64,000 bases of DNA from NCBI GenBank assembly GCA_964407615.1, contig CAYOWH010000002.1, positions 3,472 through 67,471 of the forward strand. Direction: 5' to 3'. A program made the translations under genes and the position numbers. The stretch's first letter is position 1. Each line of letters opens with the position of its first letter. Source of the DNA: an uncultured Bacteriovoracaceae bacterium (lineage in GTDB: Bacteria; Bdellovibrionota; UBA2428). Shown here piece after piece: positions 15,596-64,000 of the stretch. Under the pieces are notes generated by a model that made no database searches, was not told the DNA's origin, and saw only the letters and a program-made list of their open reading frames with translations.

Positions 15596-15610
15596 AAGCA
15601 ATATTATACA

Positions 15611-16149: not shown

Positions 16150-16626
16150 ATGATTGATACGAAAACCAATCAACAAGATGTTGATAAAGTTGATGATATA
16201 ATAAGTCAATTAAAAAATGTTCCAGCTATAGTAAAAAAAGCAGAAGAAATGAATAATGTTTTAAATAAACAAGATGTTCAACAATTTGTAATTGAATATT
16301 CTTCAAAATTAATCAAATCCGCTATAGATTCTGTTGAATATGTTAAAGATATAGTCCAAGCTGCTCCAACACCAGATGATATTACCGCATTATCAGAATT
16401 AATAGGCTCAACTGCGTCGGCATTAGAGATATTAAACAAAATGGCTATCAATGATAATAAAATTGATAATAGTATAAAGATAAAACAAATGGAAATTGAA
16501 AGCAAACAAGCTCAATTAGAAACTAAAGTTGCCGCCACCACCGTCCTTTTGACAAGAGAAGAAGTAATGAAGAAGTTATTAGAAGATTCTAATAAAATTA
16601 AAAAGGCTAAAGTTATTGAAATTTAA
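16150..16626 (+). CDS. hypothetical coiled-coil protein (158 aa), plus-strand island gene
   Basis: ATG ORF, divergent from dUTPase, stop overlapping the end of the 645-aa gene. Heptad-like K/E/I/L-rich sequence. Confidence 0.45.
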   Translation: MIDTKTNQQDVDKVDDIISQLKNVPAIVKKAEEMNNVLNKQDVQQFVIEYSSKLIKSAIDSVEYVKDIVQAAPTPDDITALSELIGSTASALEILNKMAINDNKIDNSIKIKQMEIESKQAQLETKVAATTVLLTREEVMKKLLEDSNKIKKAKVIEI

Positions 16627-18560: not shown

Positions 18561-18578
18561 ATTATTAATTATCGAAAA

Positions 18579-35287: not shown

Positions 35288-38200
35288 TTATAATACTTTT
35301 TGGGGACCAGTATTTGTTACTCTATATACAGTGCCATTTTCTCTATGAATGAGAGAATCTTCCCCAGCAATTTGAACAGATGATGTAACGTTTTTCATAT
35401 TAAATCTCTTAAAAAATGGCGTATTAACAGGAAAATCTGGTGGAAATACATCAGCCTTATAACCACCAAAATATACATAATTATCAGAATCTAAGTAACC
35501 AATCATAGTTTGATCTTTGACAGCATTATCGGAAACAAATATATCTATAGCATTATCAACCGTAGAAGATTTATCATAATTATAACATTGCGTAGGCGAT
35601 GTGATTGCAATATCTATAATAGAATTTACTAAACATTGACCTATGTCAACTCCATTATATCCCCAAGAAAATAATCTGCCATCCTTTAATAATGCAAAAA
35701 TTGTAGGGTTATCTTTTCCAGAAACTATTACCTTTTTAACATTTGACAATTCTTCTATTCTTTCAAAATTATTATATGTAACAGTAGAAGTAGAACCTTT
35801 TCCCATTTGACCAAAATTATCGTCACCACAAACCCATAAATAACCTTCTCGATCTATATAATAATTATTTAAATGTCCGCTATACAATCCATCAGATAAT
35901 AAATCTGCATCGTTGATTTCTGATGTTACTCCTCCAAAACTTTTTTTACATATTTCAAATTTAAAATGTGAATGATTGTGCGATGCTTCTGCCACAGGCG
36001 CAGCACCTCTTCCCAGTTGTCCTCTGGTATTAGTTCCAGCTGACCGAATCTTTCCATCTTTAGTAATTATAGTGAGCAAACTAGAAGTGCCATCAGAAGC
36101 AGTTATGGCATAATCTTTAATCTGCCCAGAAAATTGTTTTATTTTAGTTGGATTTATAGATACCATAGCAGCAGCAGTTGCTCCACTTTTACCATAACCT
36201 ATTCCAAATGCGCCATGTCTACTATACCCCCAAACCCATAAACTATCATCGATATCTAATGCGGCAAAAAATGGATAGTTTGTCCCAATTCTTTTAAAAG
36301 ATTTAAATTTAACTTCTTTTTCATTTTCTAAAATAATAGTTTTTATAAATCCAGCAGTAGATTTATTTGTCATGTTTCCTATTCCAAAAGCACCTCTAGA
36401 ATTATTATTATAAAATACGATATCTTTAGAAGAAGATCCTGTATTAATATAACCGACTCTATCGCCAAGAGTATCTGTAAAATATAAATAATTAGAATCT
36501 TGATCTAAATATAACGCCATTGGCTTCCAATTTATAACACTTTTTGTAGTATCTAAATTTCCTTTCACTGATCCTGAAAATAATGATACATTATTTGGAA
36601 AATCAGTATTTGATTTGACAATTACATGACTCGTTTGCGAAAGTATATATAAATTTTTTCCTATAGCCTCAATTGAGGCGGGGTTTGGGACACCAGCTAA
36701 CGATCCGACTCCATATTTTAAAGATTTTCTTGCAGGAGCACCAATAATAGTATCCACCTTTTTTGTTCCAGACAACTCTACAGTTCTAATAGAATTACTA
36801 TTATACTCAGCTATATACAACATATCACCAAGTAATTTTATACTCTTTCGAAGTTTTCCAAATTTAGCATTCAATCCGTTAGTAGCATTTTGATAGCCTT
36901 CAGACGATCCAGCAATAGTTGTAACTGGATGATTTGGTGTCGCAAAATCAACTTGTCTTATAGCAATGCTATCCGAAAAATACAGTTTTTTAGTGACTTT
37001 ATCGTATGCCATTCCTGTAGGATATCCTAAGTTAGCCTTTAATGCACTTAAGCTATCAGCAGTATTTATAACTCCCGTACCAGCAACTGTTGTCACAGGA
37101 TAATTGCCACTTAAAACTATTTTCCTAATACGTCCCGTATCTGAAACAAATAATGCAGAAACTCCATCATATTCAATTTGCACAGGTGCCAAAAATTTAG
37201 AGCCAGTTCCAATAGGACCATCCAAAAAACCGCTTGCCCCCGTACCAGCTATAATACTTAAACTAGGAGTAGTTGCCGTTAAATTAATCATCTTAATATT
37301 AAAATTACCAGTATCTACTATATATAATCTATTATCAATAAATCTTAATCCCCTAGGATCTTTGAAGCTAGCTTTAGACAAAATACCCGTAGCATTACCA
37401 GCAGCACCAGTTCCAGCAAATTTAAATGCGGATACTATTCCAGTAGTACTGTCGATAACAATTTTTTTAATATTAAAATTTGCAGTATCTGATACATAAA
37501 ATGTATTATCATTTTCCCCTCTGCAAATATCCGTAGGAGCATTAAAAGCAGCAGCAAGATAAACATCCCCAGCAACATATGTTGAAACGGCAGACGTGGA
37601 AGTGTTTAATGTTCTGATACATTTATTTTCAGTATCCGCAATATATAATGTAGATCCATCATTACTAATTGCTAATCCAGTCGGAGTATTAAATCTTGCA
37701 TTTGTTCCTATTGCATCTGTAACACCAGCAGCTCTGGAACTTCCAGCTATAGTATTTACATACCATTTATCTGTAGGTCTTTCTAATTCAGTCGTAGTTA
37801 ATTTTCTAATTCTGTGATTATCTGAAACATACATTATGTTTCTATTTGTGGGATCTATTACTATTTTTCTGGGGGAATGAAATCTTGCGGTATACCTTTC
37901 GCCATTAGCATCACCACTTAATGCTACAGTTCCCCTTTGAATACCAGATACACCAGCTATTATAACAGTATTTTTATCAGTATCGTTTTTAATTCTTCTG
38001 ATATTATGATTTAAATTATCACACACATAAATGTCCCCAGTACTTAAATCTTGTGCTATACCATTTGGAGTATTAAATCTGGAAGCACTTCCAGTTCCCG
38101 GAATTCCACCTTTTTGTCCATCTGTAGCATTGTTATTAGCTGTCGGGCTTCCTGCAATGTCTATAACATTACCCAAATAATCTATAAATTTTATTTGATG

Positions 38201-39553
38201 ATCACATGAAACTATATATTGTTCTTTTACACTAAGACCATTCACATTCGATGATGGAATACCACTCAACTCAACTTTATTAGATATAATATCTGATGGT
38301 AAAGGAATGGCAGATAATGGATTAATATATCTAAACTCAATTTCAGGAATTATTTTTCTAATTCCCCCATTTTTCGCCTCTGCTATCACTATATAATCCC
38401 TATCATTAGAAATAGTTATACCTCTAGGATCTATATATGCAGTAGACAACTCACCAACATTAGTTCCACAAACCCAAATATCACCCCCAGCTTCGATGTC
38501 TTCGTCTGGATATACTAAAGCTACGCCACTACTAACATTCCAAGATAATGCGCCTATAGAAGCTGTTTTATTTTCATCTAAATAATCGCCTCCATAAGGG
38601 GCATATTTTTTAGAATCTTTATATCCATCATATAATTTCCAAAAAGGAACTCTAACATTTAATGTAGGTATTACAGTAGTAATAACAGAACCTCCGAATT
38701 TTGATGGATGCAAATTACCCCAAGCAATAACTCTATTATCATTAGTCAAAGCTGCATATCCACTAGATGCCTGTGATAAATTAGCCAAATATTTAATATA
38801 GCCCTGTTCAACAATAATAGTCTTTTCGGGAGAATTAACTACCCAAGATTTTAAATTATTATTAAAACTAATATTTGCCATATCCGGATATGGCAAATTT
38901 TCAGGATCTACATTATTAAAATTCTCCGGTGAAATTCTTTTTCGCACCCATTTTTCATCCAAATAAATTATAGTACTTCCACTAATAGCGTCTACATTTG
39001 ATATAGATAAACCATTTGAATCAATATCCAATCCACCATTTGGTTTAATTATATTACCTAATTTATCAGTAGTAACTGCTTTATCTACTAACTTTACAGT
39101 AGATACAGAATTTGAAGAAAGTTTATCAATAGTAACTGAATTCGAAGCTAATTTTAAATCAGTGACAGAAAAATCATTCAATTTATCAGTAGTAACTGCT
39201 TTATCTACTAACTTTACAGTAGATACAGAATTTGAAGAAAGTTTATCAATAGTAACTGAATTCGAAGCTAATTTTAAATCAGTGACAGAAAAATCATTCA
39301 ATTTATCAGTAGTAACTGCTTTACTGTTAATTGAAGCGGTAGTGACTGTATTATTTGCTAAATTAATATTATAACTTTTACTAGGATCAAAATAAGCGGA
39401 TACTTTATTATTTAAGTTAATATTATTAACTATAAAATTTTCAATATTACTTAATCTTGTAGAATATGTAGATAACCCTTGATACAATGGGAAATAATCT
39501 CCTCCCGATAATTTTGCCACTTCATCTAATTGATTTATTCTTTTATTCGCCAT
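35288..39553 (-). CDS. giant tail-fibre/adhesin protein (about 1421 aa): tail-fibre repeats, then NHL-repeat beta-propeller, then RCC1-like beta-propeller
   Basis: N-terminal repeats AVTTDKLNDFSVTDLKLASNSVTIDKLSSNSVSTVKL. NHL-like YVSDNHRIRKL / YVCDNLNHNIRRI / YVSDTANFNIKKI / YIVDTGNFNIKMI. RCC1-like WVWGYSRHGAFGIG / GTNTRGQLGRG / CGDDNFGQMGKG / WGYNGVDIGQ. Track start 39574 is TTG, so I use ATG 39553. Confidence 0.7.
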   Translation of the reverse strand: MANKRINQLDEVAKLSGGDYFPLYQGLSTYSTRLSNIENFIVNNINLNNKVSAYFDPSKSYNINLANNTVTTASINSKAVTTDKLNDFSVTDLKLASNSVTIDKLSSNSVSTVKLVDKAVTTDKLNDFSVTDLKLASNSVTIDKLSSNSVSTVKLVDKAVTTDKLGNIIKPNGGLDIDSNGLSISNVDAISGSTIIYLDEKWVRKRISPENFNNVDPENLPYPDMANISFNNNLKSWVVNSPEKTIIVEQGYIKYLANLSQASSGYAALTNDNRVIAWGNLHPSKFGGSVITTVIPTLNVRVPFWKLYDGYKDSKKYAPYGGDYLDENKTASIGALSWNVSSGVALVYPDEDIEAGGDIWVCGTNVGELSTAYIDPRGITISNDRDYIVIAEAKNGGIRKIIPEIEFRYINPLSAIPLPSDIISNKVELSGIPSSNVNGLSVKEQYIVSCDHQIKFIDYLGNVIDIAGSPTANNNATDGQKGGIPGTGSASRFNTPNGIAQDLSTGDIYVCDNLNHNIRRIKNDTDKNTVIIAGVSGIQRGTVALSGDANGERYTARFHSPRKIVIDPTNRNIMYVSDNHRIRKLTTTELERPTDKWYVNTIAGSSRAAGVTDAIGTNARFNTPTGLAISNDGSTLYIADTENKCIRTLNTSTSAVSTYVAGDVYLAAAFNAPTDICRGENDNTFYVSDTANFNIKKIVIDSTTGIVSAFKFAGTGAAGNATGILSKASFKDPRGLRFIDNRLYIVDTGNFNIKMINLTATTPSLSIIAGTGASGFLDGPIGTGSKFLAPVQIEYDGVSALFVSDTGRIRKIVLSGNYPVTTVAGTGVINTADSLSALKANLGYPTGMAYDKVTKKLYFSDSIAIRQVDFATPNHPVTTIAGSSEGYQNATNGLNAKFGKLRKSIKLLGDMLYIAEYNSNSIRTVELSGTKKVDTIIGAPARKSLKYGVGSLAGVPNPASIEAIGKNLYILSQTSHVIVKSNTDFPNNVSLFSGSVKGNLDTTKSVINWKPMALYLDQDSNYLYFTDTLGDRVGYINTGSSSKDIVFYNNNSRGAFGIGNMTNKSTAGFIKTIILENEKEVKFKSFKRIGTNYPFFAALDIDDSLWVWGYSRHGAFGIGYGKSGATAAAMVSINPTKIKQFSGQIKDYAITASDGTSSLLTIITKDGKIRSAGTNTRGQLGRGAAPVAEASHNHSHFKFEICKKSFGGVTSEINDADLLSDGLYSGHLNNYYIDREGYLWVCGDDNFGQMGKGSTSTVTYNNFERIEELSNVKKVIVSGKDNPTIFALLKDGRLFSWGYNGVDIGQCLVNSIIDIAITSPTQCYNYDKSSTVDNAIDIFVSDNAVKDQTMIGYLDSDNYVYFGGYKADVFPPDFPVNTPFFKRFNMKNVTSSVQIAGEDSLIHRENGTVYRVTNTGPQKVL
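39061..39323. repeat. perfect 120-bp tandem duplication (2 copies plus about 23-bp partial third) inside the 1421-aa fibre gene
   Basis: 39061-39180 is identical to 39181-39300. Each unit holds two diverged about 60-bp subunits. Encodes duplicated KLNDFSVTDLKLASNSVTIDKLSSNSVSTVKLVDKAVTTD. Confidence 0.9.
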
Positions 39554-39561
39554 AACCTTAT

Positions 39562-42500
39562 TTATATCTTCCAATATACATTATTATCAAATACTATATA
39601 ATCATCATTTTCAATATTAACATATTCTGATGTAACATTTAACTTAGCCACGCTACTCCTCTGATCTGTCGAAACATCCATTATGACGACATAATACTCT
39701 CCAGTATCAAATAATTGCAAATCATTTTTATAATATATGGAATTAGTTTCCGAATCAATACTTCCGGTGTCAGTTCTCATCCATTGATACGTTAATGTAG
39801 ACGATGAAGTAGTTTTTATAGAAAACTGAATATTATCACCCACTTGTTTTTCAATAGGATATCCTAAATATTGCTTCCCATCAATATATAATGGATTTTT
39901 TAATCGTATTATTACATTATAATTTATTCCACCAGATAATGGAAGTTTATCCAGTCTAACCTTAGAATAATCTATAATTTCAATTATAGTTGTATCCAAA
40001 GGTAATATATCAGAAATTATTTCAGACCCCACAATTATACCTACAGTGCATCCTATATCCACAACATAACTGGTAGTGGATGTTTCAATTGAACTGTCAA
40101 TATAACTTACATTAACTAAAGAAGGATTTTTAACTTTAGTAGGACTTAAAGTAAAGTTATAGTTACTCCTATCTTTATATGTTTCATTTTGAAATGCTAA
40201 TAATCGTACATTTGATGGATCTAAATCTATGGGCGAAGTTATATTATAATCATTCGAATCCAATGATAGAGATTTTCTAAGTGGTGTAAAATTTGAAATG
40301 TAATACAACGCCTTTCCTTTAATAATTCTAAGATTAGATATATAACCATTATAATAACTCTCAGTCGGAGAGCATCCTATAAATAAATTATAATTAGTGT
40401 TATTAAAATTTTTATCAAAAAGACCACTATTCAACAATATTCCATCTACAAACAAATATACAATTCCAGATTTTCTAGTTACTGCTATATGATACCAAGT
40501 GTTCTTAATAAAATTAAATGAAGCACTAATATTGGGTTCTCCAACTATTACTTCATTAAATGAAAATCCAGTGTTTGCAATGTTTAAAGACCAAGTTCCA
40601 GAAGCTCCATCTCTTGTTTTCCTATTTGTCACAATTCTAGTCCCCCCACCATCTGGAAGATTATTCATAATATAAGCTTCAATAGTAAAGTCTTCGGTTC
40701 CAAATGCAAAAGCACTAAGATTTGTAGGTCTTTGAAATATTTCTATATATTGTGATTGAGATGAATCAAAATATCCTGCTGGTAAATAAAAATTTGATGT
40801 ATACAATACAGAACTTGGAACTATTTGCTTACTAATAGTAGGTGTTTCATATTCCAATTTACAAACTTCTCCGCCTCTATTTTCATAAAATTCAACTTGT
40901 ATATCATAAAATACGTTTGCGGTAAGGTTAATTGTGCCTGTAGTTGTTATAGGAGCAGTTATTATCCATTTATCTATAATTAGAACACCATTTACCCACA
41001 CCCTAACCCCATCGTCATGAGTAATATGAAATGTATAAAGTTCTGTTGTTGTTGGCTTTATATAACCTTTCCACCTCGCACTGAACGAATCTCTACCTCC
41101 ATTTACAAATGTACCAGTTCCCCAATTTGAATCACTATTAATATTTTCAATTACGGTAGATGATGGTGCTCCTGTTAATTCTTTATTATCCCAATATGCC
41201 GCAAATAAACCTGTTCCAGTAGTATTAGAAACCATACGCGGGCCACTAGGAGTACCACTTAATGTCAAATTATATTTATTGTCACTATTATCAAGAAACG
41301 TATCATCCTGTAGTGTTAACAATGAAGTCGAATAACCTGTTCCTTTTTCAGAAATTAATTTTGAATATAAAGAAGGTTTTGTAAATGTTGGAGAACCCTC
41401 ATAAAGAAGCTTGTCTGATATTCTAAAATTTGATATATATCCTTTAAAATTGGATTCCGTAATTGAACTAAATGGTGTAAAAGTTTCAATAGAAGGTGTT
41501 CCGACTATCGATAATGATTTTGCTGTTAAACTATTGTCTATGAATCTATTACTTTGCAACGTTAACAAAGAAACGTTTGACGGAATAGGGTTTACTACAT
41601 TTCCTGTTGCGTTTCCATTTGTTGATGTGGTAAGTGGAATAGTGCTTGGTTTAAATTCTCCTGTGTAAAGAGCTTGTCCTTTTGTTACTCGGAGGTCGGA
41701 AATATATCCACTTAGAGATACGTTTGCACTAGTATTATAATTACTACCAATCATAGGTCCGTATGTAATTCCGGGATTAATTGTCCCCCCAGCACTACTA
41801 TTAGTGTCAACTATAGTTCCATTTAAAAATGAATATAAGTTATTACCTGAGCGCACTAAAGCCACATGACACCAAGTGTTTAACGGAGGATTTGGTGATT
41901 TAACACTTTTATTTGTTGTTCCAATGTATATATCAGAACTTGTAGTGGTATCTGTAACATAAAGAACTACACTACTGGTTTGAGCAAGTTTACCATCAGT
42001 TTGACCACAATATATAATTGAGGTTCCTGCTTTCATTTTATACACCCATGCTTCAATAGTAAAATCTCCATCTCCAAAATGTAACGAATCTATATTTAAA
42101 TCTAATGTTAATTTCGAACTGCCATCAAAATACCCACTCCAACCATTTGTAGGAGTAGGCCCACCAAAAATATTTCCAATCGCTAAAGTATAAGGCGCAT
42201 CTGAAGTCGATGCTGTTCCAGATTTATTAAACGTTCCAGCAGATTGTCCATTTATATAATAATTTAAATTGCCTGATGCTAAAGAATCATCCCACATTAT
42301 AGCAACATGAGACCATGTATTGGCAGTTAACGAAACACTAGAACTGCTGTTAGATATTGGAGCTGAAGCTGTAATTTTACTTCCTATAATAAATTTCGAC
42401 CCATTAGATATCCAAAACCCTAATGTTCCATTGTTTTGAAGAATTATAGACATTCCCGGTTTACTAGAAGAATTATAATTTGTGTCTAATAATGTTTGAT

Positions 42501-54199: not shown

Positions 54200-55531
54200 C
54201 TAATTATCATCATTCAATACCCTATCAGCATTTTCTATTTCCTGATTTACTTCATCATTCAAAGAATCGTCTTCATAGATACTCAAAGTAGCATAATCAA
54301 TTCCAAAAATATTTGTACCAGAATTAACGCCCCATCGATTCTTCATCAATCCAAAACGTAATCTATTATTCATATTATCACCTTCTTGTTGATATACACT
54401 CGAAATAAAATCAGCAGTTGCGGCTAGACCAATAGATTCCGAAATAGTAGTCAAATCTGGATCTTCAGTGTCAAATCCAGCTCTAGTTAATTGCGTAGCT
54501 GTAATGAACGGACACGAAAATGTATAAGTCAAAGCTCTAATTTGTTCCGTAATATATTTTATCTTTTCATACGAATTATTACCAACATTTGTGGTAAGCA
54601 AATTGATATAGTCCAATACTACAGCATCAAATGCAATCCCCCTATTTTGTAATGATTTAAGAAAACCTTCCAAAGATCTTGGAGTCATTGTACTTGGAGC
54701 AAATTCTTTAATAATAATTTTGGAATTAACGTTTTTACTAGCATATACATTAATTTTACTAACAACATCATCACTACTATCAGCCAAATTTCTAATTGGT
54801 ATTTTAGTCAGCGTAGAAGCCAATCTCCTAGCATAAATCATTTCAGACATCTCCAATGAAATTAAAACAATAGTCCTACCAGAGTTGGACATGTTAACAG
54901 CCAAATTTCCCAACACAATACTTTTACCCACATTAGTCTGTCCCGCAAAAATATACAATGCTTTACCTTCAGATCTAAATCCACCATCTATTTTATTGTC
55001 CAACCAATTCCATCCAGAAGGTATTACAGGATCATTCCGATTCAAATCCCTAGCAACTTTTCTAATGTCCGTAAAAAGATCTAGGCCGATATCTGTGATA
55101 AGATTAATTGTGCAATTCTTCTCAAACTTATCCAGAATTTCAGATGTATCCAATGTTTTGTCATCCTTAATATCATTCGCAATCGACATTAAAGTTCCAT
55201 GAAGTGCGCGTTCTTTTAAGAATCTTTCGGTGTTTTCAATTAGCTCCTTTCTATTGAAAGTAACATCTTTAAAAGATTTAAATTCTGTCAAAACATTCCT
55301 GAAATGATCAACTTCTTCGCTTGTATTTAAAAGATTTTTAATTTCAATCGGACTAGGAATAGAATTTCTCTTTTCATAAAAATTCTTAACTATATTAAAT
55401 ATAAAACTTCTACTCTTAGATTGAAAGAATTCTAATTTGGTAAATGGAATAACTAAAGAAAGATATTCCGAATCTGACATTGAATTATACAAAAAAGATT
55501 TTTCAAATTCATCCAAATTTAATTTTGACAT
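54200..55531 (-). CDS. replicative DNA helicase, T4 gp41-like (DnaB family)
   Basis: Walker A FAGQTNVGKS. DnaB-like C-terminal RecA fold (VVLDYINLLT, FITATQLTRAG). 443 aa. Confidence 0.75.
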   Translation of the reverse strand: MSKLNLDEFEKSFLYNSMSDSEYLSLVIPFTKLEFFQSKSRSFIFNIVKNFYEKRNSIPSPIEIKNLLNTSEEVDHFRNVLTEFKSFKDVTFNRKELIENTERFLKERALHGTLMSIANDIKDDKTLDTSEILDKFEKNCTINLITDIGLDLFTDIRKVARDLNRNDPVIPSGWNWLDNKIDGGFRSEGKALYIFAGQTNVGKSIVLGNLAVNMSNSGRTIVLISLEMSEMIYARRLASTLTKIPIRNLADSSDDVVSKINVYASKNVNSKIIIKEFAPSTMTPRSLEGFLKSLQNRGIAFDAVVLDYINLLTTNVGNNSYEKIKYITEQIRALTYTFSCPFITATQLTRAGFDTEDPDLTTISESIGLAATADFISSVYQQEGDNMNNRLRFGLMKNRWGVNSGTNIFGIDYATLSIYEDDSLNDEVNQEIENADRVLNDDN

Positions 55532-55545: not shown

Positions 55546-56241
55546 CTACGAACCATATTCACGCAAGAATTTTTGATTGCTTTCCTTCCATGATTTATCA
55601 TCCAACGATCTCAATCCGGGAGACAAATGTATTATATGTATTGGATACACTCCTATTTTTAATTTTAATTTATTAGCATCCAAACAGCTAGCAATGTCAT
55701 AATGGTGGAATGAATAATTCTCATTAAATTTCCATCCAACTTCTATTATTTTTTTGAGATTAATTGCTAAAAATACTCCATCTGCTATAGCTACTCTAGA
55801 AGGTGTAGGACCAAATGCAGTATAATATATTTGTTTTTCATTAACTGGATGCTGTACTTGGCCTCTTTGGTCCTTCTTTTCAGTCATGATATGCCACAAT
55901 GATGGAAATTTTATTTTAGGATTCAGTCCTCCGGCCAAACCTATTATATCATAATTGCATTCATCTACAGCTTTTTGCAATTTTTCAACCAATTTTCTAT
56001 CATCTAAATATACATCATCATGAACAAAAACTAAAAAATCATAATTTTTATTTTTATAATATTCTATACATCTATTGTAAACTTTAGACAAAGATTCTTT
56101 ATTTTCCCATATAATATCCAAAACAACATTATTTGAAAAATTACAATCTTCGAATGATCTATATATCATTAAAGATTTGGCTTCCGATTGTTTCTTCTGT
56201 GTGCAGGATATAATTGCAACTTTAGAAGTAATTAAATTCAT
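55546..56241 (-). CDS. putative GT-A-type glycosyltransferase (231 aa, DxD-like motif)
   Basis: DFLVFVHDDVYLDD and IIGLAGG in a Rossmann-like alternation. No other diagnostic motif. Confidence 0.3.
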   Translation of the reverse strand: MNLITSKVAIISCTQKKQSEAKSLMIYRSFEDCNFSNNVVLDIIWENKESLSKVYNRCIEYYKNKNYDFLVFVHDDVYLDDRKLVEKLQKAVDECNYDIIGLAGGLNPKIKFPSLWHIMTEKKDQRGQVQHPVNEKQIYYTAFGPTPSRVAIADGVFLAINLKKIIEVGWKFNENYSFHHYDIASCLDANKLKLKIGVYPIHIIHLSPGLRSLDDKSWKESNQKFLREYGS

Positions 56242-56294
56242 TTATAAACTTAATTAAATAATCAAAAAAGTCAATCTGATTACTTTTAAGTGAA

Positions 56295-56834
56295 ATGATA
56301 AATATGTATATGAGTGATATTTTAAAACGTCCCGGATTTAATTATTGGTTGCAAGAAAAAGCTGGAAGAAAATATGGAAAAAAATTAAATTCAGCTATAA
56401 GCGAACTTGTAGATCGAAATTCTTTAGGATCAAATCCAGCACAAAAAATACAAAGAATAGCAAATTCTTTGTATAAACATTACGCAGATAAATCTTTCTC
56501 AAATTCTGAAATAATAGAATTTATAAAAACAAATATACCATCAGTAAAATTAAAATTAGATTCTCCCGACGCTTCAAATGAAATGGTATATACAGCAGAC
56601 AACAAATGGAATTCTGTTTACGTTGAACCAAATTCAGAAGAAATTCAACCACAAACTAACCATTATATCGACAATACAACTAATGTAGTTCCAGAAGAAG
56701 AGCATCAAGAACCGATAGCAATAAATCAAGAAAGCAAGAAATTATCGAAATCGGAACAAGATGCTCTTCTAAAGGAAGAATATTTAAAAAGAATGAGACA
56801 TTATTATAAAATGGAAGAATTATTCCGACGCTAA
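56295..56834 (+). CDS. hypothetical protein (179 aa), plus-strand island gene
   Basis: ATG ORF. 3' end overlaps the UvsX 3' end by 15 nt. Confidence 0.45.
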   Translation: MINMYMSDILKRPGFNYWLQEKAGRKYGKKLNSAISELVDRNSLGSNPAQKIQRIANSLYKHYADKSFSNSEIIEFIKTNIPSVKLKLDSPDASNEMVYTADNKWNSVYVEPNSEEIQPQTNHYIDNTTNVVPEEEHQEPIAINQESKKLSKSEQDALLKEEYLKRMRHYYKMEELFRR

Positions 56835-57920
56835 TTCTTCAATAGGATAATCATCCTCTTTATTTCCCATCTTCCATTCTACATCTATTTTAGCTTGAAT
56901 TAATGGAATTACTTTATCTTCCCAAAAAGCATAATCTTTGATAAAAGATTTTGCATAACCTAATTTTACATCTCCCATAGTATATGTGGGTCCGTTAACT
57001 TGAATAATACCCAAACCAACTGCCAAGTCCAACAAACCATAATATTTGTTAACGCCAGTATCAAATGATACATAAACCTCACCTTCCAAGTATTGTTTAA
57101 TGAAACGATTTTTAGCGGTTAATGCTCTCAAAATCAAACCCACATAATTTCTTTGGAGAGCAGCTAACTTCCCAGTCTCGCCCTTCAATGCGTCATCCTT
57201 AACTGGCTTTCTAGAAAGTTGAATGCCAACGCTAGGCAAATAAACGCAAGACTTACCACCGGGCATATTTTTAATAAGAGTGGGATGAAGTTCTCCCGGA
57301 TTATCATATAAATGATTAGTCGCAATAATTGCAGTCTTAGTTAATGCGCCTAACTGAACCGCATTCAATAAAAGTGTCCTGATTGCCCTAGCTCTAGTTC
57401 CCATGTCCATGCTATGAGAATCTTTTTCCAAACGAGACATTTCCATTTGAGATTGCAAGTTTCCAAGAGAATCAATCGCCACAATAAACTTCCCATACAA
57501 CTGCTTTTCATTCACAGCAGTAAGAAATTTAAACAAATCATTACGACATTGTTCCACACTAAACACAGGAACGTATTTAACTTTAGAAATATCCAAACCC
57601 AATCGAGCAGCCCCATCAGGATCAATAGCATTTTCAGTATCAAAAATAACAGGAGTGACACCCTGCTTCTGAGCATTCGCCAAAATCTTTTGGACAAATA
57701 AACTTTTTCCACACATAGATTCAGAATACAACATAGTAAGCCTCCCATTAGGGATTCCGCCATCTTTTATTTTACCACTAATAATGGCATTCAATACATA
57801 TGAACCTGTATCATACCATTTATCAACAGTTGATAAAGTAGATTCATTTAGAAAACATGCATGTGGATTGTTTTCACTTAAAATATCTAAGACTTTTGAG
57901 ATTTCTTTATTTTCGCTCAT
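56820..57920 (-). CDS. uvsX: recombinase, T4 UvsX-like (RecA family)
   Basis: Walker A YSESMCGKS. FIVAIDSLGNLQSQME matches T4 VVVFIDSLGNLASKKE. GTRARAIRTLLLNAV matches MTRAKTMKSLFRIV. IATNHLYD matches IAINHTYE. Confidence 0.85.
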   Translation of the reverse strand: MSENKEISKVLDILSENNPHACFLNESTLSTVDKWYDTGSYVLNAIISGKIKDGGIPNGRLTMLYSESMCGKSLFVQKILANAQKQGVTPVIFDTENAIDPDGAARLGLDISKVKYVPVFSVEQCRNDLFKFLTAVNEKQLYGKFIVAIDSLGNLQSQMEMSRLEKDSHSMDMGTRARAIRTLLLNAVQLGALTKTAIIATNHLYDNPGELHPTLIKNMPGGKSCVYLPSVGIQLSRKPVKDDALKGETGKLAALQRNYVGLILRALTAKNRFIKQYLEGEVYVSFDTGVNKYYGLLDLAVGLGIIQVNGPTYTMGDVKLGYAKSFIKDYAFWEDKVIPLIQAKIDVEWKMGNKEDDYPIEELASE

Positions 57921-57938
57921 ATGAAAACATTAACACAT

Positions 57939-57944
57939 ATTATA
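57939..57944 (-). promoter_or_regulatory. -10-like TATAAT 18 nt upstream of the uvsX ATG, just after the terminator T-run
   Basis: Minus strand: tttttttgtgttgactttgaTATAATatgtgttaatgttttcatATG. No Shine-Dalgarno. Confidence 0.3.
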
Positions 57945-57951
57945 TCAAAGT

Positions 57952-57989
57952 CAACACAAAAAAACAGAGGAGGGAATGCCTCCTCTGTT
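57952..57989 (-). terminator. rho-independent terminator between the 122-aa gene and uvsX
   Basis: AACAGAGGAGGcattcCCTCCTCTGTT (11-bp stem, 5-nt loop) followed on the minus strand by TTTTTTTGTG. Confidence 0.7.
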
Positions 57990-58017
57990 TTCACAATCAC
58001 CCAATGTCTAACAAAAT

Positions 58018-58386
58018 TTATTCGTCAAATAACTTAATTACTGATTCGGAATCACCCTTTGGTTGAGGTTCCTGCAAAGACACTCCACCAAAACTAGAAA
58101 CAATACGATTGTATTGATCAACTAATCTCGGATCTAATTCGAAATCATCCGGAAGTACTACAGTATTCAATGGATAGCTCCAAACAGTACCCTCAGTCCT
58201 AGAACTTCCTGCTAAAAATTCAGGCAAAAATAATGGAATAATTTGCACTTGCAATTGTCCATTATCAGCTTGAGCAATATTAATTACTGTAGGATTTTTA
58301 ATCTTTAAAACAGAATCGGTTTGTTCAACCAATTCGCCCAATACGTTTCTACCAATATTATCAATGAATGTTAGTTTTTTACTCAT
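58018..58386 (-). CDS. hypothetical protein (122 aa) at the position of T4 regA. No similarity to RegA seen.
   Basis: ATG ORF immediately downstream of the DNA polymerase and followed by a terminator. Confidence 0.45.
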   Translation of the reverse strand: MSKKLTFIDNIGRNVLGELVEQTDSVLKIKNPTVINIAQADNGQLQVQIIPLFLPEFLAGSSRTEGTVWSYPLNTVVLPDDFELDPRLVDQYNRIVSSFGGVSLQEPQPKGDSESVIKLFDE

Positions 58387-58425
58387 ACATCAGTAATTAT
58401 AAGATGTATGATATATATCAATAGA

Positions 58426-60993
58426 TTATGCGAAAAAATCTTCTAAATTATTTTTAAATTGTTCATTAGGATCTGAAAATTTCCAATCCATTGTAGAGTA
58501 AAACCTTTCAACAATAGGCTGAATTATCTTGCTAAACATTTTTTCATAATCAACTTCGAAATGATTTAAAAATTCTTTAGGGAATTTACCTTTATATCCT
58601 AAAACAGATATATCATAAAAATTAGGTTTTTTAATATAAACTATTTTTATTTTATCTCCACTTTTAATTGGCTCATATATATTTTGTATTTTAAATTCCT
58701 CCAAAAAGTAATTGTAATAATATGCAGCTTTAGCATTAATAGGCATTCCTTTACAAGTAGTTATACCATCACATCTTTGCGCATATTTATCTAAATCGGA
58801 AATTCCTTTCGTAATTGAAATATCAATTATATTCGCATTCTCAAAAGCCTCTTTAGTTTTATTAAACATATCATCTATCATTTTCATATCCTTATGAAGG
58901 ATTGTGTTATGAACAATATCTTTAATATGTTTCTTAATAAAATTAGAAATAGAAGCTTGCACAATTTCAACTCCGACATACTTCCATTTATCACAAGGAA
59001 TTCCTTCCTTATCAAGGATATGAACCACATATCTTTTCTTTTGAGTAAACACACCTACATCAGCAATAACCTCTCTCTTGAACTCCAATCTATTATCAAC
59101 AGATAATAATATTTCTTCAGACCATTTCTTCACATTATCATTTAAAAAGTTTTGAAATTCATCAACCAACTTATATCCATCTTCAGTGACCTTGTTATTT
59201 TCAAACATTTTAACACCCATATTTGCCATCGATACATATAAACTATCCGTATCCCCAGCAACCAAATGTTTATCTATAATATCAGGATCATTGATATTAG
59301 TTTTATGTGTAAAAAAATCTGAAAAGATATCTCTAGATTTTTTAATAACGGCTTGACCAGTCAATGTGATGGAACTTGCAATGTCATCATCACCAATCAA
59401 CGAATACTTACTTCCAAACGCACCATAAACTGAATTAATGAAAATCTTTATAGCCTGTTGTTGAGTATTTAATTGAGATATCTTCAACTCCAAATCAGAA
59501 GTATCTTTTAATTGCTTTTTTAATGCAGCGACAGTCCTTTCCAATTTAGACATTTCATTACGAATCTTAACTCTTCGCTTATACATCTTATCGACCAAAT
59601 CCGGATAAACACCTTTCTTTCTTTGTGTAAAAATAATACCAGATCTTGACAAAGCCCATTTTTGTTCTTTGCAAATACTTAAAAATTCAGTATTAGGCTT
59701 TCGATACGACTTCCCATTCATCAATTTAATTTCGACAAATCCATCTTTTGTATTAATATATTTCCCTATTTTAGTTTCGGGAGACATATTCAAAGTTATC
59801 ATTAAATTTGGATACAACGAGTTTGCATCAAAACTTACAATTCCATCATGATGTCCTATTTTAGGCTCATTCACAAATCCCCCCGGATTATTTTTAGGAT
59901 TTGTTCTTACTGTAGTATACAATTTTAATTTCTTCTTACGAGCAGATATTATAGATGCACCAAGTACTACTGCAATGGTACGCAAAGCTGGCTCAAATGT
60001 CGTACAACCCAAATATGCAAGAGATCTTATTTGGTTAAAATATTTTAATTTCTCATCAAGTTTAACTAAAAGTCTAACGTCCTGAATATTATAATCAACA
60101 AACTTATCCCAATTTTCATTCATGAATTGATATAATGATATATCACCATAATCAACTTTCGTTTCACCCAACTCATATTCGCCAATACTATTAAGTTTAT
60201 AAGACTCCCTTTCGCCCCCAGAAAATTTCTTATAAACTTTATAATAGTCGATACAAGATATTCCTTCCAAGTAATGAATATCATCAAGTTTACTTGGGTT
60301 CTTTTCGTTTTTGACTTGCAAGATATAATGTCTGTTTGTAGGAGATAACTCGTTAGCAACATTATCCCCAAGCATAGAATTTATTCTGTTTATAATATAA
60401 GGAATATCATAATTATCGCTATACCACCCAGACAATATATCTGGAGGATCCTTTTTCATAAAATCTATAAACTTATTAAGCAAAACTTCTTCCGAAGAAC
60501 AATAATAATATTCTACATCATCTTCTTTCGGCGTGTAACGTTTTAAACCCCAAACATGAAATTGTTTACTCAAACTATCATAAACTGTAATAACATTAAT
60601 CGGATCTTTAGGATCCGATGGTTCTGAGAATTTGTTTTCGGAAACTGCTTCAATATCGATGAAATATATTTTTAATGGGAATTTATCAAAGTCTTCATCT
60701 TCATTATGCTCCCAATACACATCCAACAAAAGTTGTTGCACTGGTGTAACATTCTCATAAAACTTTCTACCCTCATTAGAGGCTATATATTCTTTCCTTT
60801 CATAAGAAGTATTAAAGGTCTTCTTTTTTACAGGAGTTCCGAAAATACTAAACTCTTTTGAATTGGAAGAGTCTACATATAAGTATGGAGTATATGGATG
60901 AGAATATACACAACGTTTCCCATCGTCGTCCCAAGTATAAACATCTACAGTTCTATTTAAAGGATTAAATACAGCATTTCTATAACCAATCAT
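58426..60993 (-). CDS. DNA polymerase, family B, T4 gp43-like
   Basis: Exo I IYFIDIEAVSE. Motif A FDANSLYPNLMITLN. Motif C VAGDTDSLYVSM. N-terminal VDVYTWDDDGKRCVYSHPYTPYLY matches T4 VERYIDENGKERTREVEYLPTMF. 855 aa. Confidence 0.95.
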   Translation of the reverse strand: MIGYRNAVFNPLNRTVDVYTWDDDGKRCVYSHPYTPYLYVDSSNSKEFSIFGTPVKKKTFNTSYERKEYIASNEGRKFYENVTPVQQLLLDVYWEHNEDEDFDKFPLKIYFIDIEAVSENKFSEPSDPKDPINVITVYDSLSKQFHVWGLKRYTPKEDDVEYYYCSSEEVLLNKFIDFMKKDPPDILSGWYSDNYDIPYIINRINSMLGDNVANELSPTNRHYILQVKNEKNPSKLDDIHYLEGISCIDYYKVYKKFSGGERESYKLNSIGEYELGETKVDYGDISLYQFMNENWDKFVDYNIQDVRLLVKLDEKLKYFNQIRSLAYLGCTTFEPALRTIAVVLGASIISARKKKLKLYTTVRTNPKNNPGGFVNEPKIGHHDGIVSFDANSLYPNLMITLNMSPETKIGKYINTKDGFVEIKLMNGKSYRKPNTEFLSICKEQKWALSRSGIIFTQRKKGVYPDLVDKMYKRRVKIRNEMSKLERTVAALKKQLKDTSDLELKISQLNTQQQAIKIFINSVYGAFGSKYSLIGDDDIASSITLTGQAVIKKSRDIFSDFFTHKTNINDPDIIDKHLVAGDTDSLYVSMANMGVKMFENNKVTEDGYKLVDEFQNFLNDNVKKWSEEILLSVDNRLEFKREVIADVGVFTQKKRYVVHILDKEGIPCDKWKYVGVEIVQASISNFIKKHIKDIVHNTILHKDMKMIDDMFNKTKEAFENANIIDISITKGISDLDKYAQRCDGITTCKGMPINAKAAYYYNYFLEEFKIQNIYEPIKSGDKIKIVYIKKPNFYDISVLGYKGKFPKEFLNHFEVDYEKMFSKIIQPIVERFYSTMDWKFSDPNEQFKNNLEDFFA

Positions 60994-60997
60994 AAAC

Positions 60998-61036
60998 CGA
61001 TCATAGCAATCCTATGACTGCATGTCAATTGTCAAT
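60998..61036 (-). promoter_or_regulatory. sigma70-like promoter (TTGACA-N17-TATGAT, plus a second TTGACA 2 nt upstream), 6 nt from the polymerase ATG. Overlapping a 6-bp hairpin.
   Basis: Minus strand: TTGACAatTTGACAtgcagtcataggattgcTATGATcggtttATG. Hairpin TCATAGcaatcCTATGA at 61001-61017. Confidence 0.4.
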
Positions 61037-62239
61037 TTATTTGTTGTATCTAGATAGAATTTTTCTATCTTTTGATCCATATGGTGTGAAAAATAATTCT
61101 GTATAACTCATGAGATTATCATTGTTTTCTAAAAATCTCTCTTCGGCCACCTTACGTCTCTTGTAAGAAGAGTTTTTATAATGACCCGCTCTTCTCAATT
61201 CATTATCTATCTTATCCAACATTTGCTCTCCAGTTTTAAATTTAATCTCCGCATTTTCATACGTACACATGTCCTGACACGCAACAGGCAATCCAAAAGC
61301 GCAAGCTTCAATATATTTAATATCACTCTTAGATCTATTGAATGTATTGTCCTGAAGAGGAGCAACAGTCATCTGTACACCCAAATCATAAATCTTCTTG
61401 GGATAATCATAAAGTCTTTGCCAAGGATGGAATTCAATCTCCTTGTTGTGAATATATTTTGATAAACCCAAAGGATACGCACCTATAAACACCCATTGAT
61501 ATTTGTAACGACTATCTACGATAGCTTTGATAACATGTTCGAAATCGTCTTTTTGACCAGTTCGGTTCTCAACATCAAAGTGAGCACCACTACCAGTATA
61601 AAGGATACGAGGCTTTTTCTTATTTTTGTCATATAAATAATTTATTCTATCCGCATTAAAATAATCTCCTATCCACATTTTAGAAGGAAAGTTAGGAATT
61701 ACCGTTATTTCACTCTTGCCAGTCCGTTCCTTATATAACTGCTTCATGAATTCACATGTAACACTAACTTCATCACACATGTTAATAATTTCTGTTACAT
61801 TTTTTCTAACCTCATCACTAGTAAAAGCTGGTTTAAATTTATTATAATTAGGAATATCTTCCCGAAAAACTACATCGTCAATTTCATATATTATTTTAAA
61901 ATTGAATTGCTTTTGAACTTCTTTCAAAAATTTGACGAATTCTTTTTGATGTGTAGTAGCTTGCCTTTGAAGGCGAACAGCCTTCACATTAACATACCAC
62001 CTAGGATCCAATACCATGACATTAGTATCAGTTACCATAGCATAGCCTTGATAATTCAACAAATGTGAAACCCAACCAAGTCTATATAACCCACAACCAC
62101 TCAAATCAGCACCAAATTGAACAACTCTAGGCAATTGAGTTTCGGCAGGTGCTTGCGCAGAAGGATTGGAAAAACTTAAATTATTAGCCGTCTTGGAATT
62201 AATATTAAAAGGCAACCTAGGTTTATACGTAGTAATCAT
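61037..62239 (-). CDS. putative GT-B-fold glycosyltransferase (400 aa) where gp47 would be expected
   Basis: C-terminal KYIEACAFGLPVACQDMCTYENAEIKF resembles the GT-B nucleotide-sugar-binding motif, cf. T4 alpha-glucosyltransferase EYTHLELGACGTIPVF...GENLKF. No Mre11/SbcD phosphoesterase motifs. Confidence 0.4.
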   Translation of the reverse strand: MITTYKPRLPFNINSKTANNLSFSNPSAQAPAETQLPRVVQFGADLSGCGLYRLGWVSHLLNYQGYAMVTDTNVMVLDPRWYVNVKAVRLQRQATTHQKEFVKFLKEVQKQFNFKIIYEIDDVVFREDIPNYNKFKPAFTSDEVRKNVTEIINMCDEVSVTCEFMKQLYKERTGKSEITVIPNFPSKMWIGDYFNADRINYLYDKNKKKPRILYTGSGAHFDVENRTGQKDDFEHVIKAIVDSRYKYQWVFIGAYPLGLSKYIHNKEIEFHPWQRLYDYPKKIYDLGVQMTVAPLQDNTFNRSKSDIKYIEACAFGLPVACQDMCTYENAEIKFKTGEQMLDKIDNELRRAGHYKNSSYKRRKVAEERFLENNDNLMSYTELFFTPYGSKDRKILSRYNK

Positions 62240-62277: not shown

Positions 62278-64000
62278 TTAAAAGGGATTATAGTCTAACA
62301 TTTTAGTAATGCCTTCACGTTTTTCTAAAAAATATACATTTCCAGTAGCAAATGAAATACTCTCTTTTCTATGCGAAATTATATAAACACATTCTCCATA
62401 CATAGAAACACGTTCTTTCAACAATTGAGAAATTAAATTAATAGCCTTCTCATCCAAACAAGAGTCAAATAATTCATCGTATATGCTAACATTATAAATA
62501 ACATTTCCGACAATTCTTCGCATATCCATAAAGGCAAATAAGCATGCAAAATCTATAGCCTTTCTTTCTGCTCCGGAAAAATTAAAATACGAACATATCT
62601 CACCTTTATCATTTTTTATAATTTCATCAAATGTCTCATTAAAATAACAAGTACAATTTGCATCTAATCTATTCAAATAGTAATCCAATCTTTCATTGAA
62701 AGTAGATAACAATCTATTCACAATAACTGTCTTAACACCCTCTTCAGAAAATATATGTTTAGCCAAATCATATATTCTCAAATTAAAATATAAATCGTCT
62801 AAACTTTTTTTGTTATTTTCAACTTGTATAGTTTGTTCCGGAATTAATTCATCTATATCAGTTTTTTCAGATTTTAATTCGGCTATATCAGAATTTAAAT
62901 TATTTAACCAAGATTCAATGTGATTGATTCTTTCGGAGAAATCTTTCTTTTGGGAATTTTCAACTTTAATTTTAGAAAGATCTGAGTTTAATGTTTTAAT
63001 TTTTTCGTTACCTCTTTTTCTTTGATCTTCTAATTTGGAAATATTATCTTGAACAATATTCAACTCTCCAATACTTAAATTAATGTTGTTTTGTAAATTA
63101 GATATTTCAGATTCTAATATATGTCTATCGTGATCCTCAATCTTACGTAAGCATGTAGGACATGATGAATCTTTAATTGACATCTTTTTTATAGATACTT
63201 TGTAACCATTTATCAAAGTTTCTAATTCAGTTTTTTTAGATAAATTACTTCTAAGTTTAGTATCAATAGAATTTAAAGCTTTCTCGCATTTAAGAATTAA
63301 ATGTTGCGTCTCATCCACAGATTTTTCTTCAAAAGATGAAAGTTTCTCAAACAAAACATTCAAAGTTCTTTCGTTTCCTTCTTTTCGAGTCAATAAATCA
63401 TCTATTTTACTTTTTCTAGAATCTAAAATAGAACTTCTCCTAGCATTTAAAGTATCTAGATTTCTAACAGATTCTTCGTATTTACTCTTCTCATTCTCTA
63501 TAATTCTTTTAGTATTATTATAATCCAACCTAGCATGATTCTGTATTTCGGAGAAAAATATAAGATTGAAAATACCTTCGATAAATTTTTTCTTGTCAAC
63601 TTTTCCTTTTGCCATAAAAGGAATGGTATCGTTCATGGTCATCACTACACAATTTTGAAAAACATTTGATGTAGCATTTAATAATAAATGAATATCCTCT
63701 TCGGTATTTTTTATAGAATCTCTAGTAATACATTCTCCATTCTTATAAAATGTAAGAGAACTATTTGGATTCTTTCGGATTAATTTATAATTATCAGTAG
63801 ATGATGTAGTGGCTATATCAAATTCCAATTCAACTACACATTCTTTTTTAGTGTACCTATTCTGAATTAAATCCTTTTTTAATTCACGCATGGTAGTCCC
63901 AAATACAGCAAAGTACAAGGCTTCCATCATAGAAGACTTTCCTATACCATTTTGTCTTCCATCTTTATCTCTATTAATTCCAGTAACTATATGCACCCCC
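62278..64000 (-). CDS. recombination endonuclease ATPase subunit, T4 gp46-like (SbcC/Rad50 family). N-terminus truncated by the window end.
   Basis: GRQNGIGKSSMMEALYFAVFG P-loop matches T4 GRNGGGKSTMLEAITFGLFG. Zinc hook SSCPTCLRKI matches T4 GLCPTCLSQL. Signature and D-loop ERKAIDFACLFAF...SIYDELFDSCLDEK. The frame is open to 64000. Confidence 0.8.
   Translation of the reverse strand, partial: GVHIVTGINRDKDGRQNGIGKSSMMEALYFAVFGTTMRELKKDLIQNRYTKKECVVELEFDIATTSSTDNYKLIRKNPNSSLTFYKNGECITRDSIKNTEEDIHLLLNATSNVFQNCVVMTMNDTIPFMAKGKVDKKKFIEGIFNLIFFSEIQNHARLDYNNTKRIIENEKSKYEESVRNLDTLNARRSSILDSRKSKIDDLLTRKEGNERTLNVLFEKLSSFEEKSVDETQHLILKCEKALNSIDTKLRSNLSKKTELETLINGYKVSIKKMSIKDSSCPTCLRKIEDHDRHILESEISNLQNNINLSIGELNIVQDNISKLEDQRKRGNEKIKTLNSDLSKIKVENSQKKDFSERINHIESWLNNLNSDIAELKSEKTDIDELIPEQTIQVENNKKSLDDLYFNLRIYDLAKHIFSEEGVKTVIVNRLLSTFNERLDYYLNRLDANCTCYFNETFDEIIKNDKGEICSYFNFSGAERKAIDFACLFAFMDMRRIVGNVIYNVSIYDELFDSCLDEKAINLISQLLKERVSMYGECVYIISHRKESISFATGNVYFLEKREGITKMLDYNPF

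Follow-up and report, generated by a model that had tools for sequence, protein, structure and literature searches.

What do two glycosyltransferases modify when their genes stand among those of a T4-type replisome? The question is raised by a 64,000-nucleotide (nt) stretch of DNA (contig CAYOWH010000002.1 of assembly GCA_964407615.1, positions 3,472 to 67,471), called the window here, in which glycosyltransferases of 231 and 400 amino acids (aa), referred to as GT-A and GT-B, are encoded within the replication block. The original prediction, made from the sequence alone, had read the pair as makers of glycosylated, hypermodified DNA of the T-even kind, with host or virion glycans as the alternative targets. 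The window was found to be DNA of an uncultured, AT-rich aquatic T4-like myovirus lineage (mean guanine-plus-cytosine, GC, content of approximately 29% in the window) in which both glycosyltransferases are core genes. The account favoured here, at a probability of roughly 40%, is a cytoplasmic pathway of protein or glycan glycosylation whose acceptor would most likely be a virion protein. The positions and neighbours predicted for the two open reading frames (ORFs) were confirmed from the ORFs and from Pfam and PHROGs assignments:

55546..56241, minus strand: GT-A glycosyltransferase of 231 aa (PF13712; DxD motif H74-D75-D76)
61037..62239, minus strand: GT-B glycosyltransferase of 400 aa, divergent and GT4-like (from fold and phrog_7162; N-terminal ~30 residues disordered)

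Two glycosyltransferases of different fold

The GT-A protein matched Pfam family PF13712 (Glyco_tranf_2_5) with 51.8 bits (gathering cut-off 27), the match running over residues 9-229 and profile positions 1-210 of 210, and the same family was carried by all 120 GT-A homologs among the matches listed. A model made with 40 homologs had the GT-A fold at a predicted local distance difference test score (pLDDT) of 94.6. The best solved Foldseek match was majastridin (2qgi/2nxv, of which 2qgi is the complex of majastridin with uridine diphosphate, UDP; E 9e-13), followed by many GT-A transferases; mimivirus R699 and STIV A197 were also among the structural matches. The DxD motif was invariant across 41 homologs, and no tblastn match was found in cultured phages. 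These findings show that the 231-aa protein is a GT-A glycosyltransferase of the PF13712 family, as its fold and DxD motif had been guessed to indicate.

The GT-B protein matched phrog_7162, annotated as glycosyltransferase, with an E value of 5.5e-21 and stayed below the Pfam thresholds (Glyco_trans_1_4, 16.2 bits, cut-off 27; Glycos_transf_1, 12.4 bits, cut-off 26.4); no Pfam assignment was found for any GT-B homolog among the matches listed. Its model (pLDDT 89.5) had the two Rossmann domains of the GT-B fold, which agrees with the fold first proposed, and the best solved Foldseek matches were the GT4 enzymes BshA, MshA, BA1558 and PimB' (E 1e-10 to 1e-8, template modelling score approximately 0.6), with 10-13% identity to BshA, MshA and PimB'. 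Residues K304, K308, E311, G316 and P318 were invariant in the alignment, forming the donor-site motif K304..E311-A-x-x-x-G316-x-P318, and the first Glu of the EX7E motif was not conserved (position S303). The 400-aa protein is thus a divergent GT4-like GT-B glycosyltransferase.

An exhaustive search with GT-B returned 2,772 clusters at E ≤ 1e-3. Among these clusters were multidomain proteins of 1271-1955 aa with the module at their C-terminal end, one carrying a methyltransferase domain and another named at its source as a GT2/cell-wall glycosyltransferase, a setting that is one of glycan assembly. The sole homologs in cultured phages were two adjacent paralogs in phi92-like coliphages (Justusliebigvirus), with E values of 1e-15 and 1e-13. 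In Escherichia phage ALITA (PP359570.1; L006:5335-8754) these paralogs are two members of a run of annotated glycosyltransferases, a cluster on which nothing was found in the BASEL paper. A PDB sequence search with the GT-A and GT-B profiles gave nothing meaningful. Neither protein has a transmembrane-like hydrophobic segment, and on their sequences and models both are predicted to be soluble, nucleotide-sugar-dependent (Leloir) glycosyltransferases.

Conservation and synteny in the lineage

The replication block occupies 47-64 kb of the window on the minus strand, in the order gp46, GT-B, DNA polymerase, a 122-aa ORF, uvsX, a 179-aa ORF on the other strand, GT-A and helicase. The intergenic gaps are 38 nt (gp46/GT-B), 43 nt (GT-B/polymerase) and 14 nt (GT-A to the helicase start codon). 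The DNA sampled was the 64-kb window and approximately 4.3 Mb from relatives, including the 10 kb on either side of GT-B in 58 viral contigs, the Pfam-annotated loci of the window's own subclade and, by walking in steps, 27-107 kb of a 185-kb viral contig that bears both glycosyltransferases.

Both ORFs are real genes and not chance frames, with hundreds of homologs at 44-100% identity; these are plentiful in metagenomes from marine and fresh waters and occur on shared contigs. Their placement inside the replisome block, correctly described before, was found to be kept in relatives: the arrangements gp46/GT-B/polymerase and uvsX…GT-A/helicase were fixed in approximately 90 related contigs from ENA, JGI, Logan and IMG/VR. 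GT-B lay between gp46 and the polymerase in every locus spanning that junction, the order gp47-gp46-GT-B being found in relatives, and GT-A stood immediately before the helicase gene or, in loci where GT-A is not followed by one, before the next conserved ORF. When relatives were compared to the window, mean protein identity was 59.8% for UvsX, 55.9% for GT-B, 55.8% for the helicase, 54.4% for GT-A, 45.3% for the polymerase and 43.6% for gp46, and in one subclade GT-B was 77% identical compared to 47% for the polymerase. Both glycosyltransferases are under stronger constraint than the polymerase, unlike typical accessory phage glycosyltransferases.

A search of GenBank phage DNA with the window gave no match, and the window polymerase was only approximately 30% identical to those of cyanomyoviruses, HTVC008M and Melnitz. 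The metagenome scan with the first ORF of the window found no relatives because that ORF encodes a variable tail-fibre-like protein. Binned genomes gave no usable guide to the host, with only five mis-binned low-complexity matches (Flavobacterium, Chlamydiia, Melainabacteria).

Bacterial relatives of GT-A in flagellin loci

Eight bacterial sequences with 47-53% identity (tblastn E approximately 1e-82) form a sister branch of the GT-A protein; they lie on chromosomes of 54-59% GC near genes for PBP2, FolB, PGM and a class II aminoacyl-tRNA synthetase. In all three contexts examined, whose homologs are 47-51% identical to GT-A, the order was flagellin on the opposite strand, a protein of approximately 140 aa and the PF13712 glycosyltransferase. 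The ~140-aa protein had TPR repeats by Pfam in two of the three contexts, and one context continues with a PseB-like dehydratase, DegT, NeuB, WbqC and a methyltransferase. The flagellin/TPR/GT-A loci are:

L327:6431-8726
L329:6405-8753
JGI 3300059473, 15,831 bp

Judged by gene content, the bacterial locus is a putative flagellin-glycosylation island, and its PF13712 members form a candidate bipartite flagellin glycosyltransferase subfamily that was previously uncharacterised. Since identity is approximately 50% between a phage protein encoded at 29% GC and bacterial proteins encoded at 58% GC, the chemistry is probably the same. By analogy with these relatives, the phage GT-A is most likely a protein O-glycosyltransferase.

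Hypervariable glycan clusters

In the window's own subclade the genes PhoH-NUDIX-AAA_28 are followed by a glycan cluster that differed in every genome examined. One cluster held Methyltransf_24, GT17, GT1 and DegT, another GT2, two GT11, GT6 and an epimerase, and a third DUF5672, Fringe-like, UDP-galactopyranose mutase (GLF) and TylF-like genes. The overall contents were GT1, GT2, GT6, GT11, GT17, Fringe-like, GLF, DegT, epimerase, methyl- and formyltransferase and radical S-adenosylmethionine (SAM) genes. The 185-kb relative has two clusters with radical-SAM enzymes, GT2 and a formyltransferase, together with ORFs judged by their N-terminal sequence to be LmbE-like and epimerase-like. A NUDIX homolog on the source contig indicates that the source genome also has the PhoH-NUDIX region; a walk through IMG/VR with PhoH gave three short loci only. 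The clusters are:

L305:11900-20432
L306:11800-19200
L103:13700-21149
L138:10000-15400
L225:15600-22046
L308:10700-15700

No protein with at least three transmembrane-like segments was found in six such clusters, and no flippase, polymerase or initiating transferase (Wzx, Wzy, Bac_transf) in the Pfam-annotated loci. Because the six clusters lack multi-transmembrane export proteins, the glycan appears to be built on a cytoplasmic acceptor.

A candidate pathway and the points against it

In the favoured pathway, GT-A would place the first sugar onto Ser/Thr of a protein, GT-B would add or extend the sugar, and the hypervariable cluster would provide unusual nucleotide-sugar donors and finishing transferases. 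The acceptor is probably conserved and phage-encoded, because the polymerase has diverged further than the core glycosyltransferases and the clusters differ between genomes; the favoured candidate would be a structural protein of the virion. Thus the alternative named in the original prediction fits better than its DNA reading, from the flagellin-locus relatives and the sugar clusters; of its two parts, the virion (as a protein acceptor) is favoured and the host envelope less so.

Several observations weigh against this account. The capsid, portal and related genes lie outside the window and must belong to the part of the genome beyond the DNA sampled, and the acceptor protein is one that we infer; by synteny the sampling reached approximately three quarters of a genome-equivalent, by another estimate all but about 40% of the lineage's genome. 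Both glycosyltransferase genes are placed among replication genes and not among late structural genes. The T4 late-promoter motif TATAAATA was not enriched in the window (21 found compared to 29 expected), and none was found directly upstream of GT-A or GT-B. The adjacency to flagellin in bacteria is an association and not biochemistry, and neither a TPR partner nor a flagellin homolog was found in the phage loci. In approximately 20 relatives a purine-modification island, described below, directly abuts GT-A. Furthermore, the modelled GT-B fold would not separate DNA from other acceptors, since proven DNA arabinosyltransferases share its top matches BshA and MshA: the GT4-like enzymes of RB69 and DLP3, confirmed experimentally for DLP3 gp76/77, have BshA (3mbo) and MshA (3c4q/3c4v) as top Foldseek matches (PMC13326640).

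Host envelope and host proteins as possible acceptors

The glycosyltransferases could instead remodel the host envelope, modifying O-antigen, capsule or lipopolysaccharide precursors in the cytoplasm and using host export, so as to block superinfection or re-adsorption. A role in O-chain modification was proposed for the abundant glycosyltransferases of pelagimyophages (PMC7029224), the hypervariable clusters resemble O-antigen loci, and the lipid- and polymer-acting GT4 enzymes PimB', TarM and TagF are among the structural neighbours of GT-B; placement among replication genes and the lack of a late-promoter motif would also suit an early takeover. However, the clusters hold no initiating phosphoglycosyltransferase, flippase or polymerase, and no membrane component of Gtr-type or Wzx/Wzy-dependent O-antigen modification was found in GT-A or GT-B themselves, in the six clusters or in the Pfam-annotated loci. 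A variable host glycan also does not explain two glycosyltransferases more conserved than the polymerase, and the pelagimyophage enzymes are mostly GT8 and lie in the tail-fibre region (PMC7029224), HTVC008M having neither GT-A nor GT-B. We therefore regard envelope remodelling as unlikely.

Modification of a host protein is distinctly less probable. GT-A, with GT-B, would glycosylate flagellin or pilin and alter motility or receptor availability, as might be expected from the flagellin loci of its closest cellular relatives and from a position among replication genes that would suit early expression. However, no host was identified, the bins with these contigs being uninformative, and the bacterial homologs come from organisms of 54-59% GC, implausible hosts of a phage of 29% GC. 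The phages also lack the TPR adaptor, and curli and polyamine genes are common to related phages and to those that infect SAR11, which is non-flagellated.

DNA on an unconventional acceptor, small molecules and RNA as less likely targets

In approximately 20 sister-subclade contigs, the interval between uvsX and GT-A was found to hold QueC, a glutamine amidotransferase, a formyl- or acetyltransferase and a MazZ-type dATP/dGTP diphosphohydrolase domain, along with an ORF of 380-545 aa on the other strand with no assigned function. FolE, QueD and QueE are encoded elsewhere in these genomes. In the window the same interval has only the 179-aa ORF at 56295-56834. Representatives of the island and of its genes are:

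L003:15495-18811: island representative
L033:~15500-19100: island representative
L062:17054-17800: QueC
L033:17578-18249: GATase_6
L022:15090-15623: formyltransferase
L060:19562-20038: GNAT
L032:18715-19053: dGTP_diPhyd_N

The island suggests a 7-deazaguanine-type replacement of deoxyguanosine in those sister-subclade phages. It lends some weight to a further reading, in which the two enzymes would be DNA glycosyltransferases of a new type, their acceptor being a 7-deazaguanine derivative, a base oxidised by an unrecognised enzyme or an exocyclic amine. The core conservation of both genes would fit an invariant acceptor such as DNA, and the cytoplasmic glycan clusters without export genes are in keeping with it. 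Yet both glycosyltransferases are kept by the window and its closest relatives, in whose examined regions no deazaguanine genes were found. No TET/JBP, 2-oxoglutarate oxygenase or DNA methyltransferase was found in the Pfam-annotated loci or in the Pfam-scanned ORFs of the window's replication side, the 50%-identical cellular relatives of GT-A lie in protein-glycosylation loci, and the chemistry would be without precedent. The broader proposition, that both core enzymes glycosylate phage DNA without a thymidylate-synthase-family enzyme and that the sugar clusters make this DNA "glycodiverse", has a small chance comparable to that of a host-protein target, and the unconventional acceptor itself a slightly smaller one.

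A small molecule or an RNA has a slimmer prospect again. The acceptor would be a metabolite like those of BshA and MshA, the top solved matches of GT-B, both of which act on small molecules, or a queuosine-type tRNA base, relatives of the window encoding many queuosine-precursor genes. However, the window offers no supporting gene context, its closest relatives have no Que genes in the regions examined, and the similarity of fold is of the generic degree given above.

T-even-type DNA glycosylation, an unlikely reading

The T4 order is 41-40-uvsX-segA-b-gt-42-imm-43-...-46-47-a-gt, and by this order it was right to say that T-even glycosyltransferases lie near genes 46 and 47, as was the length of 400 aa given for T4 a-gt. 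When the GT-B alignment (41 sequences) was compared to T4 a-gt with hhalign, the probability was 0.5% over 20 columns. Against T4 b-gt it was 0.3% for the GT-B alignment and 0.4% for that of GT-A, and against RB69 gp3 (p003) 1.1% for GT-B, with only the E-A-x-x-x-G-x-P-V motif aligned. As there is no profile relationship, the equal length of GT-B and T4 a-gt is a coincidence. No match was obtained by tblastn with T4 a-gt in the window and 1.8 Mb of relatives' loci, or with RB69 p003, p046 and p047 in the sampled loci. Among BFVD structures, the "DNA alpha-GT" of cyanophage S-TIM5 ranked 16th against GT-B and the SP-15 glycosyl transferase 22nd, no better than generic GT-B proteins. Isoelectric points (pI) were 6.1 for T4 a-gt, 9.05 for T4 b-gt, 9.08 for GT-B and 8.63 for GT-A and are not discriminating.

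A profile of the ThyA family (E. coli ThyA, T4 gp42, T4 td and the RB69 5hoC synthase) gave no match at E ≤ 1 when 4.0 Mb and the later loci were translated in six frames, the controls scoring 1e-27 to 1e-114. By tblastn, nothing was found in the window or the relatives' DNA for T4 gp42, td, gp56, cd, frd, alc, denA and dam or for RB69 p045-p048 and p055. The search that had been proposed, for a hydroxymethylase and a dCTPase, thus came back empty: no ThyA-family hydroxymethylase, dCTPase or dCMP deaminase was found in the window, which covers 64 kb of the 118,691-bp source contig, or in the ~4.3 Mb sampled from relatives. Ten relatives had NrdA (L316:11110-14688, L317-L325), with NrdB beside it in the walked contig, and these NrdA loci had no thymidylate-synthase-family gene, deaminase or dCTPase. 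The trimeric dUTPase of the window (15611-16069, beside gp44; PF00692, E 5e-24) is of the ordinary type.

A pathway of the T-even type, in which a hydroxymethylase or 5-hydroxy-dCMP synthase would make hydroxymethyl- or hydroxypyrimidine DNA for GT-A and GT-B to glycosylate after replication, has in its favour a position like that of the T4 and RB69 modification genes (in the uvsX-polymerase interval and next to gene 47), a GT4-like fold used by bona fide DNA arabinosyltransferases (PMC13326640) and a basic GT-B family (median pI 8.5), but from the lack of sequence relationship to T4 a-gt, b-gt or RB69 gp3, the ordinary dUTPase and the lack of ThyA-family, gp56 dCTPase, cd, alc, denA and RB69-type nucleotide kinase genes in the sampled DNA it is very unlikely in this lineage. 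The claim of T-even-like glycosylated DNA is thus not supported by the DNA sampled.

Scans for ThyX and dCMP-deaminase motifs gave only spurious matches or matches outside the clade. Neither type of thymidylate synthase was found in the sampled DNA of the clade, a result suggesting that these phages depend on their host to make dTMP. In the sister subclade the order was found to be NrdA, a small ferredoxin-like ORF, NrdB and Hsp20.

Gene block and other features

The remaining features of the block are:

62278..63996, minus strand: gp46/SbcC-like recombination nuclease subunit, directly upstream of GT-B; its N-terminus runs past the window end
61000..61028, minus strand: near-consensus sigma-70-type promoter, TTGACA-17-TG-TATGAT (extended -10), 11/12, in the GT-B/polymerase gap (consensus match only)
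58426..60993, minus strand: family-B DNA polymerase (gp43-like), a single ORF of 855 aa, downstream of GT-B
58018..58386, minus strand: conserved 122-aa ORF with no assigned function, between polymerase and uvsX
57960..57992, minus strand: strong intrinsic-terminator-like hairpin, 14 bp stem and T run, between the 122-aa ORF and uvsX (consensus match only)
56820..57920, minus strand: UvsX/RecA-like recombinase
56295..56834, plus strand: 179-aa ORF with no assigned function, filling the variable uvsX-GT-A interval
54200..55531, minus strand: DnaB/gp41-type replicative helicase, directly downstream of GT-A

The sigma-70-type promoter in the GT-B/polymerase gap suggests that the polymerase may have its own promoter and that GT-B may be the end of the gp47-gp46 transcription unit. 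Upstream of gp47, relatives have a sigma-like gene (possibly gp55), UvsW, UvsY and a SegE-like gene, followed by variable regions. An NCBIfam scan of GT-A, GT-B and the neighbouring ORFs without assigned function gave no match; Pfam or PHROGs scans of most of the larger window ORFs returned replication and structural proteins and the dUTPase.

The polymerase is split into two ORFs (501 and 370 aa) in some relatives (L003:11216-13833; L029), as in some other T4-like phages. In one JGI relative, gp46 and GT-B are separated by an inserted gene for an RCC1/WD40-repeat protein of 595 aa (L004:8141-9928, minus strand), a homolog of part of the 1428-aa tail-fibre-like protein of the window (35288-39574, minus strand), which also matches an RCC1-type PHROG. 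The clamp-loader gene gp44 (AAA+/Gp44_lid) and the dUTPase gene (14666-16069, minus strand) lie inside the baseplate/structural module of the window, far from the remaining replisome genes.

Judged from ORF translations and the HTVC008M annotation, the 185-kb relative (L148:10717-19872) appears to carry SAM-decarboxylase-like genes, a spermidine synthase and a curli-type CsgF/CsgG/curlin operon, followed by a 682-aa protein. This curli and polyamine cargo is the same as in pelagimyophages and HTVC008M, with replication proteins only ~30% identical to those of HTVC008M. HTVC008M, considered as close kin for these common genes, was rejected: its polymerase is 30% identical, it has neither glycosyltransferase, and its uvsX abuts gp41.

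Significance

The two kinds of enzyme are known, and it is their core status that is unusual. If virion or other proteins are glycosylated, a widespread marine and freshwater T4-like lineage would have an essential, conserved glycosylation core and a fast-diversifying glycan toolkit. We know of no glycosylated virion protein in any T4-like phage; giant viruses and mycobacteriophages are known to bear sugar coats, which here would affect adsorption, grazing and recognition at sea. A PF13712 subfamily is flagged as a candidate bacterial flagellin glycosyltransferase, and a testable conserved glycosylation module is defined in an abundant uncultured phage lineage. A source of mis-annotation is also removed, since a glycosyltransferase beside gp46 or uvsX does not equal T4-style glucosylation of hydroxymethylcytosine; predictions of DNA modification should rest on the enzymes that make the acceptor.

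Comparison with known systems

T4 a-gt (CAZy GT72) and b-gt (GT63) are, like the 400-aa protein, phage-encoded soluble enzymes of the GT-B fold, and they lie in the same region near 46/47 and uvsX. They differ from the window pair in that both T4 enzymes are of the GT-B fold whereas the second enzyme here is GT-A, and in that the T4 genes vary among T-even phages whereas the window genes are core genes. In RB69 and DLP3, the arabinosyltransferases adjoin a ThyA homolog (the 5-hydroxy-dCMP synthase), a nucleotide kinase and UDP-arabinose (sugar-nucleotide) genes; no counterpart of these neighbours was found here. In RB69 this set lies between uvsX and the polymerase, whereas the window glycosyltransferases have gp46 and the polymerase, or uvsX and the helicase, as neighbours, with no p048 or p045 homolog in any locus. 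The phi92-like cluster resembles the window in that its GT-B paralogs stand just upstream of primase/helicase and DNA polymerase genes; the likeness is confined to the central 220 residues, at ~27% identity, and no GT-A homolog is present there.

With the retaining GT4 enzymes BshA, MshA and PimB', GT-B shares the two Rossmann domains and the C-terminal K...E-A-x-x-x-G-x-P-V donor-site motif, and it differs from them in its low identity, its sub-threshold Pfam scores for GT1-family profiles and the missing first Glu of EX7E. Within PF13712, GT-A is a full-length member with its DxD motif and is closest in structure to majastridin; it is only 17-18% identical to majastridin and belongs to a tight subfamily with the flagellin-linked bacterial members. 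The loci of those members show a logic parallel to that of Caulobacter FlmG, in which a TPR flagellin-binding domain and a glycosyltransferase domain O-glycosylate flagellin in the cytoplasm (PMC7591256): flagellin, a TPR protein, a cytoplasmic glycosyltransferase and nonulosonic-acid genes stand together. However, FlmG joins its TPR domain to a catalytic domain of the GT-B fold in one protein, whereas the bacterial relatives have a separate GT-A enzyme, so that the likeness is one of logic and not of family.

To the favoured pathway the viral systems of virion glycosylation offer a likeness by analogy only. The capsid or fibril glycans of chloroviruses and mimivirus, and the glycosylated capsids and tails of mycobacteriophages, are made in the cytoplasm by virus-encoded soluble glycosyltransferases and sugar-nucleotide enzymes, with no export machinery.

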